Source: Escherichia phage outra. From it: 64,000 bases of DNA. The stretch's first letter is position 1. Each line of letters opens with the position of its first letter. The translations under genes were made by a program, and so were the position numbers. Shown piece by piece: positions 11,245-64,000 of this stretch. The notes under the pieces were generated by a model that was given only the letters and a program-made list of their open reading frames with translations, ran no database searches and was not told the DNA's origin. The stretch lies in the sequence record MN850645.1, one strand, 5' to 3'.

Positions 11245-11511
11245 CTAATTACTGTTAGATCTGTACTCTGTCTTCCATTCACAATGGTAAACTTCAACAG
11301 GTTCTAACTTCCAGTGTTCAGGAACTAGTTCAGGACAATATCTACAAAAGAGAAATAGATAGATAACTAAGACAGGTATTAAATAGTAAAATGGTATACG
11401 ATCATAACCATACTTACGAGATAACATGTAGACATATAGATAGGGTATAACAATTAATCCTATAACTATAAGTAAGAAGAGAAGTATAAACCTTAGTGTA
11501 GTAACATCCAT
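11245..11511 (-). CDS. hypothetical membrane protein (88 aa)
   Basis: strongly hydrophobic N-terminal half. Confidence 0.5.
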   Translation of the reverse strand: MDVTTLRFILLFLLIVIGLIVIPYLYVYMLSRKYGYDRIPFYYLIPVLVIYLFLFCRYCPELVPEHWKLEPVEVYHCEWKTEYRSNSN

Positions 11512-11589
11512 AGTATTCTCCTATACAGTAATATACTCTGTTCCTGCCCCTCCATGAGTGACAGGAACAATATCTATAGAGAATACTAA

Positions 11590-11650
11590 CTCGCTTCGCT
11601 CGTCACCTTTCAGGTTTAGGGTAGCATGTTTTTCTGAAAAAGTCAATACT
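11590..11650. repeat. conserved intergenic element copy A (CTCGCTTCGCTCG ... TTAGGGTAGCATGTTTTT)
   Basis: near-identical 18-bp core and upstream CTCGCTnnCGCTCG block also present at 40282-40340. Confidence 0.6.
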
Positions 11651-11675
11651 CTCCACAAAACTTTACAAAATACTT

Positions 11676-11948
11676 TTACATAGGTACAACAGAGTCTGTT
11701 TTGAAGTCGTACATATGATTTACACCTGTGATTTTTGACATAGAGATTGCACGTTTAGCACCTGCAATTACCTGGTCTGTCTTCTTAATCTCTTCACGGA
11801 ACTTACGTACAGTTAAAGAGAAGAAACGATGATCCATCCATTGACGATTCACACGATCACGCTTGAAGTGACGGAAATCTTCAATCTGCTTATTGCGCAA
11901 TCGGCGCAGTACATGCAATAGTTGATAGTAAGGGTGTTTATTTTTCAT
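11676..11948 (-). CDS. hypothetical basic protein (90 aa)
   Basis: ORF in operon orientation. Confidence 0.5.
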   Translation of the reverse strand: MKNKHPYYQLLHVLRRLRNKQIEDFRHFKRDRVNRQWMDHRFFSLTVRKFREEIKKTDQVIAGAKRAISMSKITGVNHMYDFKTDSVVPM

Positions 11949-12990: not shown

Positions 12991-13244
12991 TGTACTACCC
13001 CCTTAAATCCAGATGTACTGCCAGTTTTAACTTTTGCTTTAAGAGGTTCCAACTCTACCATAGGTGTTGCTACTTGTATAGGATTTTCCTCAACCTCATA
13101 AATATAATATTCATAATAAGCATACTTACCAATAGAGTGCAGATACTTAATTGCATGTTCAGGTGAATCTGCTTCAACATACCCCAAATCTTTTGTAGTG
13201 CGGCCTTCACAGTCGCCTTCTGTAGTTACGTGATAAAGTGTCAT
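12987..13244 (-). CDS. hypothetical protein (85 aa)
   Basis: 4-nt overlaps with both neighbours. Confidence 0.5.
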   Translation of the reverse strand: MTLYHVTTEGDCEGRTTKDLGYVEADSPEHAIKYLHSIGKYAYYEYYIYEVEENPIQVATPMVELEPLKAKVKTGSTSGFKGVVQ

Positions 13245-30496: not shown

Positions 30497-30570
30497 AATG
30501 ATAATCATTCTTATTTATAGCTGATTATTTATGCAATAAACTGCATAATGCAATAATGATAATCATTCTT
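30497..30570. promoter_or_regulatory. two Fur-box-like sites (AAATGATAATCATTCTTA; AATAATGATAATCATTCTT)
   Basis: GATAATCATT core shared with Fur consensus. Confidence 0.45.
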
Positions 30571-31424
30571 AACTTATGACCATCTAACCTATAAAATAAT
30601 AAGCTATCTAACTAAATTAAAACTAATTATCTCACCTTTATTTATAACTTACTGTTACTATCTCATTGATAACCTTATATTAAACAACAATAACTAATAT
30701 AAATCATTACTAAGCTAAATATAATCTATCTAACCTTTAAAACTATAACTATAATCTATCGAATTGTTGCACAAAGTAACTATTAAATTGTTAGTAACAT
30801 TGCTAAATAATTAATATCCTATCTATTTATGATCTAATCTTTACCTTCCTATTTATTACCTAAATAACCATTTCATATAGTAATTATTTCATACAATAAC
30901 TATAACAAGAAACATAATTCGCAAGCGTATCATTAGCAGCCTATGCCGGACACATAGGCGGCTAATAATAACGCAACTACACACCCCACATAATAACCAT
31001 CACCGATAGTTATTATTTGTGCTTATGTAGCTTGCAACAATTGCAAGCGCAACAATATACTAAGGTATATTGTATCCCTTACATTGTTGCGGTGCGTTAT
31101 TATTAGCTAATGTTTAGAACATTGGCTATAATATAAGCTGCATATAATAAGCTATTCAATAATAAACATCGTGAATAATGACATTGATGATCATAATGCG
31201 CCACCCTCCAGGGGGCGCTATGTGAACACAAAGAAATCTTTCTTATCAAGAAAATATTATCACTATTGCGCAAAATTATTTACATCTGAATAGATGATTT
31301 TTCATACTATTATTGTTATTTGTTGAGCATAGTTATAGCCTATTTGTTGAGCCTACTTTCTTAAAAGCGCAATAAATCAGAATTATCTTGATTTTTAGTG
31401 CGTTTTATAGTATAGAAAATATGC

Positions 31425-31443
31425 AAATGATAATCATTATCAG
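31425..31443. promoter_or_regulatory. near-consensus Fur box (AATGATAATCATTATC)
   Basis: 16 contiguous bases identical to positions 4-19 of E. coli Fur consensus GATAATGATAATCATTATC. Confidence 0.55.
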
Positions 31444-31607
31444 CTATCTTCCACGGGTAGCACTATTTCACGCCAGATCATTTCATTTGGCAAGGTGTAT
31501 ATAGATGTTTAGACTTGCCAAGTTATTGATTTACTTAGAATTTATCTATTTTGTTGTGAGTAGTACCTTTCTTGCTTAGAAAATAATCAAAAGTCTTATA
31601 AGTCATT

Positions 31608-31640
31608 GAATGATAATACAAATGATAATTATTCTCATTG
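31608..31640. promoter_or_regulatory. Fur-box-like tandem site (TGAATGATAATACAAATGATAATTATTCTCATTG)
   Basis: repeated GATAAT hexamers and palindromic half-sites. Confidence 0.4.
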
Positions 31641-31998
31641 ATATTTGAGGGGGACGGTCGGCAGAAATCGGGGGGTGCTGAAAATCGCGTTAAGCACCTC
31701 TCGCAAGCGAGCAGTATTTTGCGGCAAGTTATTGATATTATTGGCTTTACGCTTATGAAAAGGGGGTGTGTCGAAATAAAGCGGGTATACCGGAAAATTT
31801 TTGTGGCATAGATATTTATTTGTCTATATTATGTACAAAGGGGTGTGTTAAAAATATTAGGTATATATAGAATAATTGATAGGGAAATCCTATACTAATC
31901 CCTCCATTAATGATGTTTCTATGTTACTGTTCTTGTAATAGATGAAAAGACGCTGTATGATGTGTGGCATGAAACGTAAACTTATAAAGGAGTCTGAT

Positions 31999-39727: not shown

Positions 39728-39952
39728 ATGAAGTCTGTAAACAAGTTGCAACAATTTTTGTTATCAACAGCAATCTTTTTGCTTTTGTTAATTGGTATTC
39801 TGTATGGTGCATCTAACTTATACAATCTACATAATGATGTAGAACAGAATAAAGAGAAGTGCATCATTCTAAAACACAAGAAACAAGCAGAAGATTTCTT
39901 AAAGAATAAGTGTTACAACTACATTGATTATGAGGAGACAAACAATGATTAA
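39728..39952 (+). CDS. small membrane-anchored protein (74 aa), paralogue of 35019-35237
   Basis: AAGGAGGG SD; hydrophobic N-terminus; shared C-terminal motif. Confidence 0.55.
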   Translation: MKSVNKLQQFLLSTAIFLLLLIGILYGASNLYNLHNDVEQNKEKCIILKHKKQAEDFLKNKCYNYIDYEETNND

Positions 39953-40187
39953 AGAATTAGGTATGCGAGTATACAGTGAGTGGACTCCAAGCAATGGCCC
40001 AGGAGTTGTTGCAGCTAAATGTATCAATGGTCGTATTGAGTACCTGGAAGGGTATGAAGATAATGAAGAGTTAGTAGATTATGCTAAATCTTTTATTGAA
40101 GATGATACAGACTTTATTGTATTATATGATACAGGAGAGTTAGAGTATGGATATGATGGAGATGGGGATATCTTTGAACTTCAATAA
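39945..40187 (+). CDS. hypothetical acidic protein (80 aa)
   Basis: start moved to ATG 39945 with GAGGAG SD. Confidence 0.45.
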   Translation: MIKELGMRVYSEWTPSNGPGVVAAKCINGRIEYLEGYEDNEELVDYAKSFIEDDTDFIVLYDTGELEYGYDGDGDIFELQ

Positions 40188-40281
40188 GAGTAGTAAGTAA
40201 GGTATAAAGAGTATATAGTTAGTTATAGAGTTAGTAACATTACATATACTCTTTCCATGTATAACATGGAATATTCTCTAC

Positions 40282-40340
40282 CTCGCTATCGCTCGGTATA
40301 TAAGATTAGGGTAGCATGTTTTTTACGAAAAGTAAAACTG
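40282..40340. repeat. conserved intergenic element copy B (CTCGCTATCGCTCGG ... TTAGGGTAGCATGTTTTTT)
   Basis: 18-bp core identical to 11616-11633. Confidence 0.6.
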
Positions 40341-40394
40341 TTTATACCGATTGATAGCAGGTTTTTAATAGATTCTATCTATGAGGAGTAGAAA

Positions 40395-40613
40395 GTGTAC
40401 AAATTATATAAAGGAAAAGATAAGTTTACGGGTAATACATCTGGTTTCTATGTAACACCACGTGGCGTTGCTGTATTTGACTGGATTCCTGGTACTCCAG
40501 ATCGTGAAATGATCTCTCTTGTAAAACTGTCGGAACAAGAGTACACTTACGGTGACATTACAACATTCTATTCTCGTGCAGAAAATCCAAAACTGATTGC
40601 GGAGTGGGAATAA
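40395..40613 (+). CDS. hypothetical protein (72 aa), GTG start
   Basis: GAGGAG SD 6 nt before GTG. Confidence 0.5.
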   Translation: MYKLYKGKDKFTGNTSGFYVTPRGVAVFDWIPGTPDREMISLVKLSEQEYTYGDITTFYSRAENPKLIAEWE

Positions 40614-53003: not shown

Positions 53004-53505
53004 AATAGAAAGGTTGAGTTAAACCCAGCCTGTTTTTTGGGTCGTAGACGTACCAAGCATATGCTGTCTTATCAGTACCACCTGCAACAAAAGATGGTCG
53101 TTCAGAAAGAACAATCAAATTTGTTGGTGGATTCTGTTTATGGAATTCCCTTCGTTTAATAGACTCTAGGAACCCAAGACGCAACAAGTATATGCAAACG
53201 TCTGCTTCTTTTAAGCTCTTTTGCAAGAACTCAAGTGCAAGTCTGAATGGTGGATTTGTGATTATAATATCCGGCTTAGTATGCCATTCGTGGTTAAAAT
53301 AATCCTTCCCTTCTTCTAACTCACAATATTCTGATCCTTCTGGAAAATGTTGATAAATTGCAGCAGCAGCGCCTTTACACGGTTCTGCAAAAATAAAACC
53401 TTCTTCTTTAAGGTTATTAAAATCTATTACACTAAATAATGCATTTATACATTTTTGTGGAGTAGGATAGTAATCAGTCGGTGGACGATCATACTTATTT
53501 GCCAC
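52996..53505 (-). CDS. small amino-methyltransferase-like protein (putative phage Dam-type N6-adenine MTase)
   Basis: FAEPCKGAAAA (SAM-binding-like) and IITNPPF (NPPF catalytic motif); 169 aa. Confidence 0.5.
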   Translation of the reverse strand: MANKYDRPPTDYYPTPQKCINALFSVIDFNNLKEEGFIFAEPCKGAAAAIYQHFPEGSEYCELEEGKDYFNHEWHTKPDIIITNPPFRLALEFLQKSLKEADVCIYLLRLGFLESIKRREFHKQNPPTNLIVLSERPSFVAGGTDKTAYAWYVYDPKNRLGLTQPFYFV

Positions 53506-61001: not shown

Positions 61002-61188
61002 ACTTGGCTACACCATTAACTATAATATGACCGCAAGACATAACTCCTAGCCAATGATCACCATTCTTTTTTAAACGTTTGCCGTAAACATCACAGAAAC
61101 CATTCTGTAATTCGGAAGCCTCGTAAGAGGCTCCCTTTTCGAAAACGTCTTTGAAGTCAGAAATTAATCCAACACAAAGTAGTTTCAT
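60970..61188 (-). CDS. hypothetical protein (72 aa)
   Basis: ORF in operon orientation. Confidence 0.45.
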   Translation of the reverse strand: MKLLCVGLISDFKDVFEKGASYEASELQNGFCDVYGKRLKKNGDHWLGVMSCGHIIVNGVAKFEIIKGEKDD

Positions 61189-62273
61189 TAAAAGTCTAAC
61201 TCCTCGTCATCACTTACATCTTTATTTGCTGAATTCAGTTTGTAAGCTGTAATTTGGATCTCCTGTGCTGCTGCTTGAATTTGATCTGGATTTAACCAAA
61301 CATCCATCCAAGGCAGTGGACTTTTCTTCGGTGCACGGAATTTGTGTTTCATTTTCAGTCTGCGATAGATAGGTGCAGCATTGAAGTAAACCCAAAGTTT
61401 GAACAACTCTGCGTTACCACCAACGATAACCCTTCCTTCACTAAACAGATAGTCACACCAATCTTCCTCTTGTCCAACTACCGTATCGAGAATTTCTGTC
61501 AGAACGTCGATATTGTCTTCGTATACTTTTCTCCAGACAGGATCTTTCAGCAGTGCATCAATAATAGCATAATCCATTTTAACGTGCAATAGTTCATCCA
61601 ACATAATTTTTTGAATGAGTTTAGCTGCACCTACAAACAATTGCTGCTCTGCTAAGGCAAATGTTGCAGCAAAAGAGGAGATGAACTGAATACCTTCCAG
61701 ACCGATAAGTGCAATCATTCCTTTCAGGATCAGTAGACGAAGGTTATCATCCTTCTCAATCAGACCTAGAGCATATTTATGTCCTGCCTCTGCCAGATCA
61801 CTCATTATCTCTTCAACTATACCCATCCTCTGGAAGATTCTTTCATTCTCCATGATCTGATCGATAACTTCATTTGGATTAGGGATACACTGACGAATAA
61901 TTTCAGAATATGTCAAAGCGTGTAAAACTTCCATTTCTGATTGCTTCATCATCATTGCACATGCTTCGTTGTTACTTAAAAATGGTGCAAACAAAGTGAT
62001 GATTGATTTAGCAAGTGAATCATTTTCCCATTGGAAAGATAGGTTTTTGATCATAACATCATAGTTGCTTTTAGAACAAGCTACGAAATCTTTTCGTGTC
62101 TGATCTAAGTTTACTTCGTTTTCATCCCAATCTTGCTGTTTTTGTAGTTTGTACAGACGATGCATTTCTGGGTATGTTACATTAATAGAATCAAAAATAC
62201 CTAACTGTTCGCCCAAAAATACAGGGTAGAAACCTTCTTTGTAAGTGTCGTTGTATAAATTAATTGCTGCCAT
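61188..62273 (-). CDS. nrdB: ribonucleotide reductase small (beta) subunit, class I
   Basis: di-iron ligand blocks EVLH and LEGIQFISSFAATFALAE...LDELLH, acidic C-terminal tail. Confidence 0.85.
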   Translation of the reverse strand: MAAINLYNDTYKEGFYPVFLGEQLGIFDSINVTYPEMHRLYKLQKQQDWDENEVNLDQTRKDFVACSKSNYDVMIKNLSFQWENDSLAKSIITLFAPFLSNNEACAMMMKQSEMEVLHALTYSEIIRQCIPNPNEVIDQIMENERIFQRMGIVEEIMSDLAEAGHKYALGLIEKDDNLRLLILKGMIALIGLEGIQFISSFAATFALAEQQLFVGAAKLIQKIMLDELLHVKMDYAIIDALLKDPVWRKVYEDNIDVLTEILDTVVGQEEDWCDYLFSEGRVIVGGNAELFKLWVYFNAAPIYRRLKMKHKFRAPKKSPLPWMDVWLNPDQIQAAAQEIQITAYKLNSANKDVSDDEELDF

Positions 62274-62595
62274 TTAAATCCTCCACAATATCACACATTG
62301 CTTTTATTGTATCAATGTGTTCTTTCTCCATACCATGCTCTATGTAAGCCTTCTCTAATGCGTTCCATACACTCTTTGTGAGTAGTACAGTAACTTCTCC
62401 CTCATATCTTGCCCTGGTTAAAGCATACCAGGTAGCTATGGGATCATTGGAAGCCCATATTTCAACACTGGAAAATTGAAAACCTGCAATATAATGACAA
62501 CACCAATCGAATGTAAAATCTTTACTATCTACCAGTGTATAATTGCCCCAACGCCTTTGTGGTGTTGCCCCAGGTAATACAACTAATGTAGGCAT
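62260..62595 (-). CDS. hypothetical protein (111 aa) between nrdA and nrdB
   Basis: start moved to ATG 62595 with AAGGAGGAAT SD. Confidence 0.45.
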   Translation of the reverse strand: MPTLVVLPGATPQRRWGNYTLVDSKDFTFDWCCHYIAGFQFSSVEIWASNDPIATWYALTRARYEGEVTVLLTKSVWNALEKAYIEHGMEKEHIDTIKAMCDIVEDLNGSN

Positions 62596-62636
62596 ATTCC
62601 TCCTTAAGAAATGGGGGACAAAGCCCCCTAGCTTCA

Positions 62637-64000
62637 TTACATCTTACAAGCCTCACAACCGGATTCTTCATCCTCTTGAGCGAGTGAGGTTGCTGATTTT
62701 GTTCGACTATTTAGATAGTACAAAGATTTACCACCAAGTTTTGCAAACTGAAGAATATATTGCATTTCTGATTTAATGGATAAACGACCACCTTCCATCT
62801 TAGAATAGTCAATCCACTTGTCACATGATGCACCTTGATCTAAGAATTTAGTCAACAGTCCATATGCTTCAGCCATATCTTTATCTGGCGTATCCCAAGC
62901 CGATTGGTAAATATCTTTTAGTTTATCGTAATCTGGCACAATAAACAGAACATTACCTTTTTGGCTTTGTTTATAAACTATAGTATCACGTACAGGATAC
63001 ACAGAGTTAGTCGTATTACTTACAAGACTACTGGACTCATTCGGAGCAATAGCTGCTAATACACTATTTCGGATACCGCCTTGTGCAATGATATCTTGTC
63101 GTAAACCTTCCCAATCCATTTTAAGTTTAAAATTGCCAATATCATCTACAGCTTTAGCGTAGGTGTCAATAGGCAACCATCCTTCAGGCCATTTGGTTTT
63201 ATGCATCCATTCTGCATTACCTTTCTCTTTTGCCAAACGAAGAGAAGCTCTTGCTAACCAATAATAATGTCTTTCTGCTAATTCGTGAATTAGTTTTTTG
63301 CCGTAAGGATCTGAATAAGTAACAAAATTACTTGCCAGATAATGTGCAAGGTTTGTAATACCTACACCGATAGACCTACGTGCTTTAGCAGTGATTTCGT
63401 TATGTTTAAACGGATACTGCATTGTTTCAATCACATTATCAATAGTTAGAACGGTATAATATGCAACATCTTCATATTCTTCTGGTGTAACACGACCAGC
63501 TACAATAGAAGACAGGAAGCATAATGCCAATTCTTGATCTTCTGTATTCTCACCTGTGAAAAGATCAGTCATATTGTGAAATGCTTTCGTAGGTAAGAAA
63601 ATTTCTTGGCACAAGTTTGACTGGTAAATAACATCCTTAAACGGAGTATGCTTATTAGCATTATCCGCAAAGAACATATAAATACGTCCTGTTTCTGCTC
63701 TTTGTGTAATAATTTCTGCCAGAAGATCTCTTGCTTTTACAAACTTCTTCTTAATTCGTTTGCGACTAACTTTTTCATATACTTCTTCAAACTCTTCCTC
63801 GCTTTTATAAAGCGCCTCATAGAGTTCTGGTGCTTCGTCATAACTGACTAGCATCCAATCTTTACCTTTTGCTGCACGTCGCAGGAAAGCATTGTTTACT
63901 ACAATAGAGTAATCAAGTTTATCTACTCGTTTTTCACTAACAGTAGTTGGGTTTTTCAAACGTACCAGATCTTCAAAATCAGGTTCTAATATTGTAAACG
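62637..64000 (-). CDS. nrdA: ribonucleotide reductase large (alpha) subunit, class I; 3' portion only, 5' end beyond window
   Basis: active-site SNLCQEI block and C-terminal ESGCEACKM tail; catalytic block lies only about 100 aa into the track ORF, so the N-terminal half must be outside the window. Confidence 0.85.
   Translation of the reverse strand, partial: FTILEPDFEDLVRLKNPTTVSEKRVDKLDYSIVVNNAFLRRAAKGKDWMLVSYDEAPELYEALYKSEEEFEEVYEKVSRKRIKKKFVKARDLLAEIITQRAETGRIYMFFADNANKHTPFKDVIYQSNLCQEIFLPTKAFHNMTDLFTGENTEDQELALCFLSSIVAGRVTPEEYEDVAYYTVLTIDNVIETMQYPFKHNEITAKARRSIGVGITNLAHYLASNFVTYSDPYGKKLIHELAERHYYWLARASLRLAKEKGNAEWMHKTKWPEGWLPIDTYAKAVDDIGNFKLKMDWEGLRQDIIAQGGIRNSVLAAIAPNESSSLVSNTTNSVYPVRDTIVYKQSQKGNVLFIVPDYDKLKDIYQSAWDTPDKDMAEAYGLLTKFLDQGASCDKWIDYSKMEGGRLSIKSEMQYILQFAKLGGKSLYYLNSRTKSATSLAQEDEESGCEACKM

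Follow-up and report, generated by a model that had tools for sequence, protein, structure and literature searches.

A predicted extended -10 promoter with a promoter-proximal mini-hairpin recurs in Stephanstirmvirinae phages and in satellite-like islands

A repeated intergenic element in the phage outra genome

We analyzed a 64,000-nucleotide stretch of the Escherichia phage outra genome (MN850645.1; hereafter the window), in which a preliminary description had pointed out an intergenic element of ~60 bp that is present twice. A 2-kb piece around the element is 100% identical to Escherichia phage vB_EcoM_ESCO8 (OM386653; hereafter ESCO8), a phi92-like phage of the genus Justusliebigvirus in the Stephanstirmvirinae, and exhibits 95-99% identity to 54 further records. 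At full length the window is the reverse complement of ESCO8 from ~29.6 to 93.6 kb (92-99% identical), and the whole ESCO8 genome with its annotation was used as the reference for the window. Copy A of the element lies in a 164-bp gap between the minus-strand open reading frames (ORFs) 11245-11511 and 11676-11948, and copy B lies in a 207-bp gap between the plus-strand ORFs 39924-40187 and 40395-40613. This placement is consistent with the ESCO8 annotation and agrees with the earlier statement that copy A sits between minus-strand genes and copy B in front of plus-strand genes.

The 18-bp core of the element, TTAGGGTAGCATGTTTTT, has two exact matches in the window, both on the plus strand (11616-11633 and 40306-40323), and a search allowing up to three mismatches gave no additional match there. 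Two core matches were reproduced in none of 100 shuffles, and a profile constructed from 22 relatives finds the same two copies alone in the window, at 11582-11653 (E=1.6e-18) and 40274-40343 (E=1.3e-13). The two-copy element that had been proposed is therefore real, and a third copy, copy C, is present in ESCO8 outside the window. The three ESCO8 copies are located at 81958-82029 (+), 53305-53374 (+) and 13075-13147 (-).

Every sub-motif that had been listed, as well as the short hairpin preceding each copy, was located in both copies. Specifically, CTCGCTTCGCTCG is found at 11590-11602 in copy A and CTCGCTATCGCTCG at 40282-40295 in copy B, GAATACT and GAATATT are present with one form per copy, the spacers within the element are 13 nt and 10 nt, and the adjoining hairpins are GTTCCTG..CAGGAAC at 11540-11568 and TTCCATGTATAACATGGAA at 40253-40271. 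CTCGCTTCGCTCG and CTCGCTATCGCTCG are the two forms of the CTCGCT..CGCTCG motif, and the two-substitution difference described for it is instead a 1-nt indel (13 vs 14 nt). The element is also longer than first described, extending to AGTCAA at 11641-11646 and AGTAAA at 40331-40336, which are -35 hexamers when read on the other strand.

Promoter pattern on the minus strand

Variants of the element were obtained from a phage collection by BLAST, and from IMG/VR, metagenomes and a genome collection by pattern scans, with 33 distinct full-length variants remaining after filtering. When read on the minus strand all 33 have the same order of parts, namely an A/T-rich stretch, a -35 hexamer, a spacer, TGn, TACCCT, AA, 9-14 variable nt and a hairpin motif. 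The -35 hexamer is TTGACT in 27 variants, TTTACT in four and TTGACA in two, and is thus close to the TTGACA consensus with TT.AC being invariant in the alignment. The spacer between the -35 and -10 hexamers is free in sequence and measures 17 bp in 26 of the 33 variants and 18 bp in the remaining seven. The TG of TGn never changes, while its third base does (TGC in 30 variants, TGG in two and TGA in one). The -10 hexamer reads TACCCT in 33/33 variants, a constancy that was required by both the retrieval and the tabulation patterns and that is independently confirmed only in the BLAST hit ESCO13, the single copy whose recovery did not depend on it. The two nucleotides after TACCCT are AA in phages and AC in the islands described below, and CGAGCG-N(1-2)-AGCGAG is found 9-14 nt 3' of the -10 block, with one variant having TGCGAG. 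In ESCO13 the originally described core has a single substitution (TAGCAT to TACCAT), which affects the free third base of TGn.

A free-sequence spacer of fixed length, TG with a free third base, and conserved T-12, A-11 and T-7 constitute the signature of a sigma-70 extended -10 promoter. The conserved TG, the conserved T-12, A-11 and T-7, and the free spacer of fixed length thus indicate that the minus strand of the element very probably codes for such a promoter. By the general rule for sigma-70 start positions, transcription would begin ~7 nt 3' of the -10 hexamer, where a purine is present in the variant classes inspected by eye; both promoter activity and this start site are predictions from sequence. 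Generic scans of the plus strand revealed neither a conserved -35/-10 pair nor a terminator, and a plus-strand promoter or terminator was consequently rejected. Of the readings first listed, a promoter is therefore the best supported, though not on the strand first assigned. Since the promoter is read on the minus strand the originally described orientation is reversed: copy A, which as a promoter had been expected to drive antisense transcription, is co-oriented with its genes, and it is copy B that is antisense.

ESCO8 also contains many canonical promoters (TTGACA, 16/17 bp, TATAAT-like), and the strict retention of an odd -10 hexamer where canonical promoters are common suggests that the element represents a separate promoter class. 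Sites of the type TTGACA-N14-TGCTACCCTAA that lack the hairpin module are present in the unrelated IMG/VR phage contigs L010 (reverse complement, ~7111) and L012 (reverse complement, ~2945), where they adjoin ordinary extended -10 promoters. This indicates that the TGC-TACCCT-AA form of the -10 region is not restricted to Stephanstirmvirinae.

A conserved mini-hairpin downstream of the predicted start

At roughly +8 to +25 relative to the predicted start, the hairpin motif, which we term H2, would be present both in the nascent RNA and on the non-template strand of the DNA. Going inward its pairs are C-G, G.A, A.G, G-C and C-G followed by the loop, an arrangement that includes tandem G.A pairs. 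The closing pair, formed by the bases that directly precede CGAGCG and follow GCGAG, covaries: among 22 sequences it is C-G in 13, A-U in six and other in three, and the next-but-one pair is always standard. A helix test found 85% of cells paired vs 46-57% in slid controls, and none of 500 shuffles scored as high, a significance that is overstated because the sequences are phylogenetically related. The sole variable positions of the motif are the loop N's, with the counts being GCGAAGC 18, GCGATAGC nine, GCGCAGC two, GCGAAAGC two, GCGTAAGC one and GCGAATGC one; 32 of the 33 variants fit the mini-hairpin class GCGNAGC/GCGNNAGC, with GCGAATGC as the exception. That the loop length varies (3-4 nt) favors a hairpin over a duplex site for a dimeric protein.

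Five of these six loop variants appear in the table of melting temperatures (Tm) of a 2026 review, with values of 76.5, 71.0, 76.5, 71.5 and 70.0 C, including GCGATAGC at 71 C and GCGAATGC, a stable GAAB loop, at 70 C. All of the four-base-loop variants are documented in that table as stable DNA mini-hairpins, and GCGCAGC, which is outside the table, fits the GCGNAGC consensus as well as the GCA loops that the same review discusses. The review also reports that the RNA form r(GCGAAAGC) melts at just 39 C. The hairpin module may be a site for a putative binding protein, and could act as DNA or as RNA.

Immediately 3' of TACCCT-AA is a weaker feature, an inverted repeat of 3-4 bp that we call H1. 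Its stems differ by lineage (ACCT/AGGT, AACC/GGTT, ACCC/GGGT, AAAC/GTTT and AAACA/TGTTT) and are unstable by nearest-neighbour energy. The summed best stems amount to 58 vs ~37 expected, and 0 of 5000 shuffles reached as high a value, which is subject to the same inflation by relatedness. Since H1 spans the predicted start it would be absent from the RNA of this promoter and, if real, would act in DNA.

Distribution of the cassette in relatives and in satellite-like islands

We refer to the promoter pattern together with its hairpin module as the cassette. BLAST with 73 bp of copy A detected the element at 78-88% identity in phages, usually at two or three places per genome, with positives being Phapecoctavirus (ESCO13, phAPEC8 and others), the Klebsiella phages phi1_175008 and KP13-26, the Citrobacter phage Tr1, phiWec181 and phiWec190. 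Copies A, B and C are syntenic in every relative, with no indel polymorphism seen around them, and their positions and orientations are kept across three lineages. The conservation ascribed to the element in the preliminary description thus extends to related phage genera, and also to islands. The possibility that the host carries a copy was rejected, as 5,426 complete E. coli genomes gave no match to the phage or the island version. The 87 matches in the genome collection were mostly chance matches; five had a full promoter, and three of those five were phage fragments.

The cassette is present in 10 of 10 island loci examined, seven of which were found through a protein homolog (L241-L247) and three through the motif search itself (L030, L163 and L168). 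Their hosts are Klebsiella michiganensis, Enterobacter hormaechei, K. aerogenes and Scandinavium, together with metagenomes, and the island protein homologs lie on chromosomes of the first three. When three island loci were compared with the phage, one gave a single weak match in a methyltransferase region and the other two gave none. The islands are ~10 kb or longer and carry a DUF6538-type integrase. All seven loci for which the layout was determined have, in order, the integrase, the cassette, ~750 nt of non-coding DNA, a canonical promoter, an operon, a helix-turn-helix (HTH) protein and a resolvase. The operon, at which the cassette points, comprises small ORFs together with genes for an endonuclease VII-like and a DUF5906 primase-like protein. 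In these seven loci the -35 hexamer starts at most ~10 nt from the integrase stop codon, with the -10 hexamer ~30 nt past the stop. The island cassette reads TTGACT or TTGACA, an 18-bp spacer, TGC-TACCCT-AC and then ..CGAGCGAAGCGAG, and is closest to the C-type version of Klebsiella-like phage contigs. We also observed repeated (T)GTTCCTGT-like words in the ~750-nt non-coding stretch. A search of IMG/VR with one island protein returned the query contig alone.

The island family looks like an undescribed phage satellite. That the same positions are invariant in phages and in unrelated islands indicates selection on the cassette as a functional unit. The repeat is thus a conserved feature, and with a third phage copy and the island copies at hand it looks more like a shared regulatory switch than a chance repeat. 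The island cassette would fit a satellite that is coupled to a helper phage, as P4 is to P2, with the helper relationship being putative.

Copy A and its flanking genes

The features at copy A, all read on the minus strand, are as follows.

11641-11646, minus strand: -35 hexamer TTGACT (alignment, variant tabulation)
11624-11640, minus strand: spacer of 17 bp (variant tabulation)
11618-11626, minus strand: extended -10, TGC plus TACCCT, hexamer at 11623-11618 (variant tabulation)
11617-11616, minus strand: AA after the -10 (alignment)
11610-11611, minus strand: predicted start at G or A, 7-8 nt past the -10 (deduced)
11605-11615, minus strand: H1, ACCT-gaa-AGGT (stem comparison across relatives)
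11588-11604, minus strand: H2, motif CGAGCGAAGCGAG at 11602-11590 with mini-hairpin GCGAAGC (helix test)
11512-11587, minus strand: predicted structured 5' leader (RNA fold)
11245-11511, minus strand: gene for an 88-amino-acid (aa) protein with two hydrophobic helices, the first gene 3' of copy A (ORF)

The leader RNA of copy A (11611 to 11509) has a predicted folding energy of -33.3 kcal/mol (z=-3.84), and none of 200 shuffles folds as well. The fold contains H2, the hairpin 11568-11540 (GTTCCTG..CAGGAAC) and one long-range helix in which 11575-11588, a segment just 3' of H2 that includes GAATACT, pairs with the Shine-Dalgarno region at 11512-11528. This predicted pairing of the ribosome-binding site suggests translational control of the 88-aa gene, which may code for a toxic small membrane protein. 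Overall, copy A is predicted to drive the 88-aa membrane-protein gene via a structured leader, and it heads a block that leads into replication genes. The A-type copy is in the sense orientation in Justusliebigvirus and in the Klebsiella and Citrobacter phages, and an ORF of 88-89 aa begins at +101 to +113 in four of the five sequences examined (ESCO8, the Klebsiella phage, Tr1 and the metagenome relative L079), with L065 having instead a 130-aa ORF with the same end point.

Immediately upstream of copy A in all relatives is the minus-strand ORF 11676-11948, which codes for a 90-aa protein that is very basic and has DFRHFKRDRVNRxW as an invariant motif. Its structural model (pLDDT 90) shows a helical hairpin of two long helices and a small beta hairpin. 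The small flanking genes gave no Pfam match, and the PHROG families to which they belong are all of unknown function.

Copies B and C

The features at copy B are also read on the minus strand.

40331-40336, minus strand: -35 hexamer TTTACT (variant listing)
40308-40316, minus strand: extended -10, TGC plus TACCCT at 40313-40308 (variant tabulation)
40307-40306, minus strand: AA after the -10; spacer 17 bp; predicted start ~40301
40279-40298, minus strand: H2, motif CGAGCGATAGCGAG at 40295-40282 with mini-hairpin GCGATAGC, closed by UACC/GGUA (helix test, fold)
40270-40254, minus strand: H4, hairpin CCATGT..ACATGG (fold of the predicted antisense RNA)
40253-40207, minus strand: H5, AGAGTATAT..ATATACTCT (fold of the predicted antisense RNA)

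In two other lineages the B-type -35 hexamer is TTGACT. The RNA predicted to start at copy B (40301 to ~40200, ~100 nt) forms hairpins H2, H4 and H5 at -27.1 kcal/mol (z=-3.5) and ends ~20 nt short of the stop codon of the convergent plus-strand gene (40187). In Justusliebigvirus, ESCO13, a 153-kb contig and the Klebsiella phage alike, the B-type copy runs antisense to its neighbors. The earlier alternative of a small RNA gene is thus plausible for copy B only, given its three hairpins and z-score, and there on the minus strand rather than on the strand first assigned. Seven of eight B-type and island sequences have a more stable fold on the promoter-sense strand than on its complement. H4 is common to the phage B-type and the island leaders, the latter being without a convergent gene, and a consensus RNA structure of the copy B RNA and the island leaders recovered H4 alone with little covariation. 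On the plus strand H4 gives a weak terminator-like score for the upstream genes in a generic scan, and no intrinsic terminator scores on either strand within the element itself, only the neighboring H4. A search of the whole window against Rfam 15 and for tRNAs gave no match at gathering score, with noise only at E<=1 around the copies, and a tRNA or known RNA family was rejected on this basis.

Copy C (ESCO8 13075-13147) has the opposite orientation and lies in the divergent gap that separates the ribose-phosphate pyrophosphokinase gene from the next block, where it points into the prs, NAD-salvage and tRNA block. Its leader of ~230 nt contains a second promoter-like site.

Proposed mechanism and alternatives

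We consider the chances roughly even that the cassettes form a co-regulated promoter class in which the promoter-proximal hairpin is a cis recognition site for a putative trans factor, analogous to ops, nut or qut. According to this model, host sigma-70 RNA polymerase would bind TTGACT, the 17-bp spacer and TGC-TACCCT, and would begin transcription ~7 nt downstream of the -10 hexamer. Within the first ~25 nt the polymerase would cross the purine-rich CGAGCG-N(1-2)-AGCGAG segment, which may then fold, as non-template DNA and as nascent RNA, into the GCGNAGC/GCGNNAGC mini-hairpin, which the tandem sheared G.A pairs, along with one or two pairs of the Watson-Crick type, would lengthen. A postulated trans-acting factor, probably phage-specified, would read the hairpin on the early elongation complex or at the 5' end of the transcript. 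Such reading would mark a small co-regulated set of transcripts, comprising the copy A unit that runs into replication genes, the copy B unit that would start a structured non-coding RNA antisense to the end of the early block, and the copy C unit with prs, NAD-salvage and the tRNA block. Islands that have copied the cassette would thereby couple their own expression to infection. Our preferred guess for the action of the factor is antitermination or processivity. Processive antitermination would explain the long untranslated stretches after copy B, copy C and the island cassette, and would let the copy B transcript run antisense through the early block.

Several observations weigh against this model, in addition to the relatedness of the sequences behind the shuffle statistics. 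TACCCT keeps T-12, A-11 and T-7 and so matches only three of six consensus positions, which is why a generic promoter scan called neither copy A nor copy B. Nearest-neighbour folding of H1 and H2 as single-stranded DNA gave z-scores of +0.6 to -1.5, which are not significant; because the standard energy model is without terms for GNA loops or tandem G.A pairs we regard this test as uninformative rather than negative, and the case for H2 thus rests on covariation and on the published mini-hairpin measurements. No intrinsic terminator was found on the minus strand downstream of copies A and B, leaving antitermination without an obvious target except Rho. A second canonical promoter is located between the cassette and the first gene in the C-type copy and in the islands. 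Phmmer with E. coli RfaH and NusG detected no NusG/RfaH homolog among six-frame ESCO8 ORFs (best E=0.8, limited sensitivity), and a phage NusG/RfaH paralog as the factor was rejected accordingly; the 90-aa protein upstream of copy A was likewise rejected as a candidate factor, given that its fold is uninformative with no Protein Data Bank (PDB) match at E<1. Finally, the location of H1 at the start suits a DNA-level or replication role at least as well.

This last point bears on the main rival explanation, which we regard as unlikely, that the copies are transcription-primed replication origins at which the purine-rich 5' RNA would remain paired with the template as an R-loop, with H1 and H2 holding the displaced non-template strand open as an entry or priming signal for the primase-helicase of the phage or island. 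T4 oriF and oriG and ColE1 are transcription-primed origins. Under such a scheme gene orientation would not matter and islands would carry the element within their own origin, and indeed the orientation of the copies is independent of gene direction, with copy B being antisense in every lineage examined. H1 spans the predicted start and so forms in DNA alone, the loop variants are all stable as DNA whereas the RNA form of GCGAAAGC melts at 39 C, the transcribed strand is strongly purine-rich (e.g. GAGCGAAGCGAGGGGAG), and the island cassette is situated within a ~1-kb non-coding stretch before a primase-like gene. The natural homes of such mini-hairpins given in the review also include the complementary-strand origins of G4, St-1 and alpha3 and RSF1010 ssiA, along with N4 promoters. 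However, GC skew simply tracks the gene strand with no extra inflection at the three sites, and was therefore discarded as an origin sign. An A+T-rich unwinding element is also inconsistent, as ~45 bp of nearly pure A/T occur ~150 nt 3' of copy C, in a genome of only 37% G+C, and none occurs after copy A. Copy A lies ~100 nt before a gene with a leader that would sequester the ribosome-binding site, which resembles ordinary expression control, and at copy B the sense-strand RNA structure is favored over the antisense one.

A second explanation that we consider improbable is that the promoter is constitutive, early and otherwise ordinary, with a 5' stem-loop that protects the transcript and no need for a trans factor, and that the copies are kept by descent and recombination. 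The -35 hexamer and extended -10 should on general grounds suffice for the host polymerase, and many of the canonical sigma-70 promoters of this phage also have a conserved GC hairpin a few nucleotides past the start, as if this were a house style. Yet a stabilizing hairpin requires structure and not sequence, which leaves the sequence invariance of the motif unexplained: 11 positions of the motif, two non-Watson-Crick G.A pairs among them, do not change across genera and islands while their neighbors drift, and the non-consensus CCC of the -10 hexamer and the AA that follows it (AC in islands) are equally fixed. Furthermore, the fold leaves at least six unpaired nt before H2, which is generally long for 5'-end protection, and an unregulated promoter directed at the replication genes of an integrated island would probably not be tolerated.

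A site in duplex DNA for a sequence-specific protein such as a recombinase or homing endonuclease, or else a plus-strand promoter or small RNA, is highly improbable even though both the phage and the islands have a gene for a serine recombinase or invertase and copies A and B are direct repeats with copy C inverted, because the conserved blocks are set apart by variable lengths (9-14 nt and 1-2 nt) that are incompatible with a rigid duplex site, the three copies are syntenic in all relatives with no insertion or deletion polymorphism, and the plus strand has neither a conserved -35/-10 pair or terminator nor an Rfam or tRNA match; the homing or recombination target raised in the preliminary description accordingly finds no support.

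Returning to the promoter with a hairpin read by a trans factor, a broader and more tentative claim, which on balance we find doubtful, is that the cassette represents a new control element, a sigma-70 promoter plus non-template mini-hairpin, that is either read by a non-NusG factor of the Stephanstirmvirinae to reprogramme RNA polymerase or seeds an R-loop or primase entry, and that a hitherto undescribed satellite family of Klebsiella and Enterobacter has copied so as to detect or exploit its helper.

Other elements in the window

A second promoter-leader family is present on the plus strand of the window at ~20.3-30 kb (ESCO8 63.6-73.3 kb), where at least seven promoters of the form TTGACA-16/17-TAnnAT each have, a few nt past the start, a conserved G+C hairpin, for instance CGTAGGCGGGAAATGGTTTCCCGC or CATAGGGCGGCAATAGTGCCGCTC. 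Separately, AATGATAATCATT(C/A)T.. occurs four times, at 30497-30513, 30555-30571, 31426-31442 and 31621-31637, in a ~1.4-kb stretch with no convincing ORF; the ORF-poor region ~30520-31940 corresponds to the unannotated ESCO8 gap 61161-62889. The AATGATAATCATT repeats match the core of the E. coli Fur box GATAATGATAATCATTATC almost perfectly, and may serve as iron-responsive promoters or, in this lytic phage, as a decoy for Fur.

Significance

Phages of the phi92, phAPEC8 and Klebsiella Stephanstirmvirinae group are widely isolated for therapy. Our literature search turned up no account of the motif, of promoters in these phages or of transcription or replication control in the group. With the cassette, each genome has three conserved, precisely located control points, along with a hairpin of 13 nt that lends itself to mutation, to use as bait or to reporter fusions. 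If the hairpin recruits a factor, then the ops/RfaH principle would extend to a lytic phage and to a non-NusG reader, and if it instead seeds replication, then the origins of this phage group would be located. The island cassette also points to a candidate helper-satellite pair and a possible means by which an island could sense infection.

Comparison with known systems

The closest likeness is to the ops elements that recruit RfaH in Enterobacteria and UpxY in Bacteroides, which are non-template-strand hairpins (GGCGGTAGCGTG, CTGCGAAGCATA and ccgcgtagcgca). Both ops and the cassette are short elements of a transcribed leader in which the non-template strand folds into a mini-hairpin of the GCG-NN-AGC type, and both head transcription units that are long or poorly translated. 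Provided that the promoter prediction is correct, the cassette has the leader position, the non-template strand and the GCG-N(N)-AGC hairpin of the ops type, and in our own alignment 9 of 12 positions are the same in the B-type AGCGATAGCGAG and E. coli ops. The ops consensus GGCGGTAGnnTG is 12 nt long, with G5 and T6 being flipped out and read by RfaH and T11 serving as a pause signal. These bases are not conserved in the cassette, where positions 5-6 vary (A, AT, AA, TA or C) and position 11 is A. The CGA/GAG flanks of the cassette with their tandem G.A pairs have no ops counterpart, and unlike ops the cassette hairpin has loop N's that vary freely and lies at +8 to +25, right by the promoter. 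Because the RfaH-read bases are not conserved and no phage NusG paralog was found, the cassette does not qualify as a member of the ops family.

A second group of related systems is the lambdoid antitermination sites. The lambda qut site used by Q at PR', nut boxB used by N, and HK022 put are cis elements within the first tens of nucleotides that convert RNA polymerase or mark the transcript, with boxB being a small hairpin with a GNRA-like loop. The cassette resembles them in being promoter-proximal and in heading more than one transcription unit. It differs in that the nut boxB loop has 5 nt and an unrelated sequence, whereas the cassette loops have 3-4 nt, and in that the cassette lacks a sigma-dependent pause element within its first 6 nt, with no Q- or N-like protein being identified. 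No boxA (CGCTCTTA-like) was seen on the sense strand when the alignment was read by eye.

Mini-hairpins of the same GCGNAGC/GCGNNAGC class are present in the G4, St-1 and alpha3 origins, in RSF1010 ssiA and in the promoters of the N4 virion RNA polymerase, and like the cassette these are sites of phage transcription or priming initiation. However, the known mini-hairpins form in single-stranded or supercoil-extruded DNA and are read by primase or the giant N4 polymerase, whereas the cassette hairpin follows a sigma-70 type promoter in duplex DNA; the ESCO8 annotation contains no N4-like polymerase. The R-loop origins T4 oriF and oriG, with a middle promoter and an unwinding element, and ColE1 RNA II also combine a promoter with a downstream element as the cassette does, and as a general matter they share with it the occurrence of several copies per genome in an orientation that disregards neighboring genes. 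The cassette differs from them in that an A+T-rich unwinding element is not consistently present.

Finally, the P2 late promoters, which are activated by Ogr or by P4 Delta, couple satellite expression to helper infection. As with P2 and P4, one specialized promoter element is found in a phage and in an unrelated integrative element with the same host range. What is shared by P2 and P4 is upstream activator sites (TGT-N12-ACA at -55), whereas here it is the core promoter and downstream hairpin that are shared. Viewed against these systems, the cassette is probably a promoter with a putative regulatory hairpin close by, an arrangement of a known kind, and has an unexpected second home in satellite-like islands.

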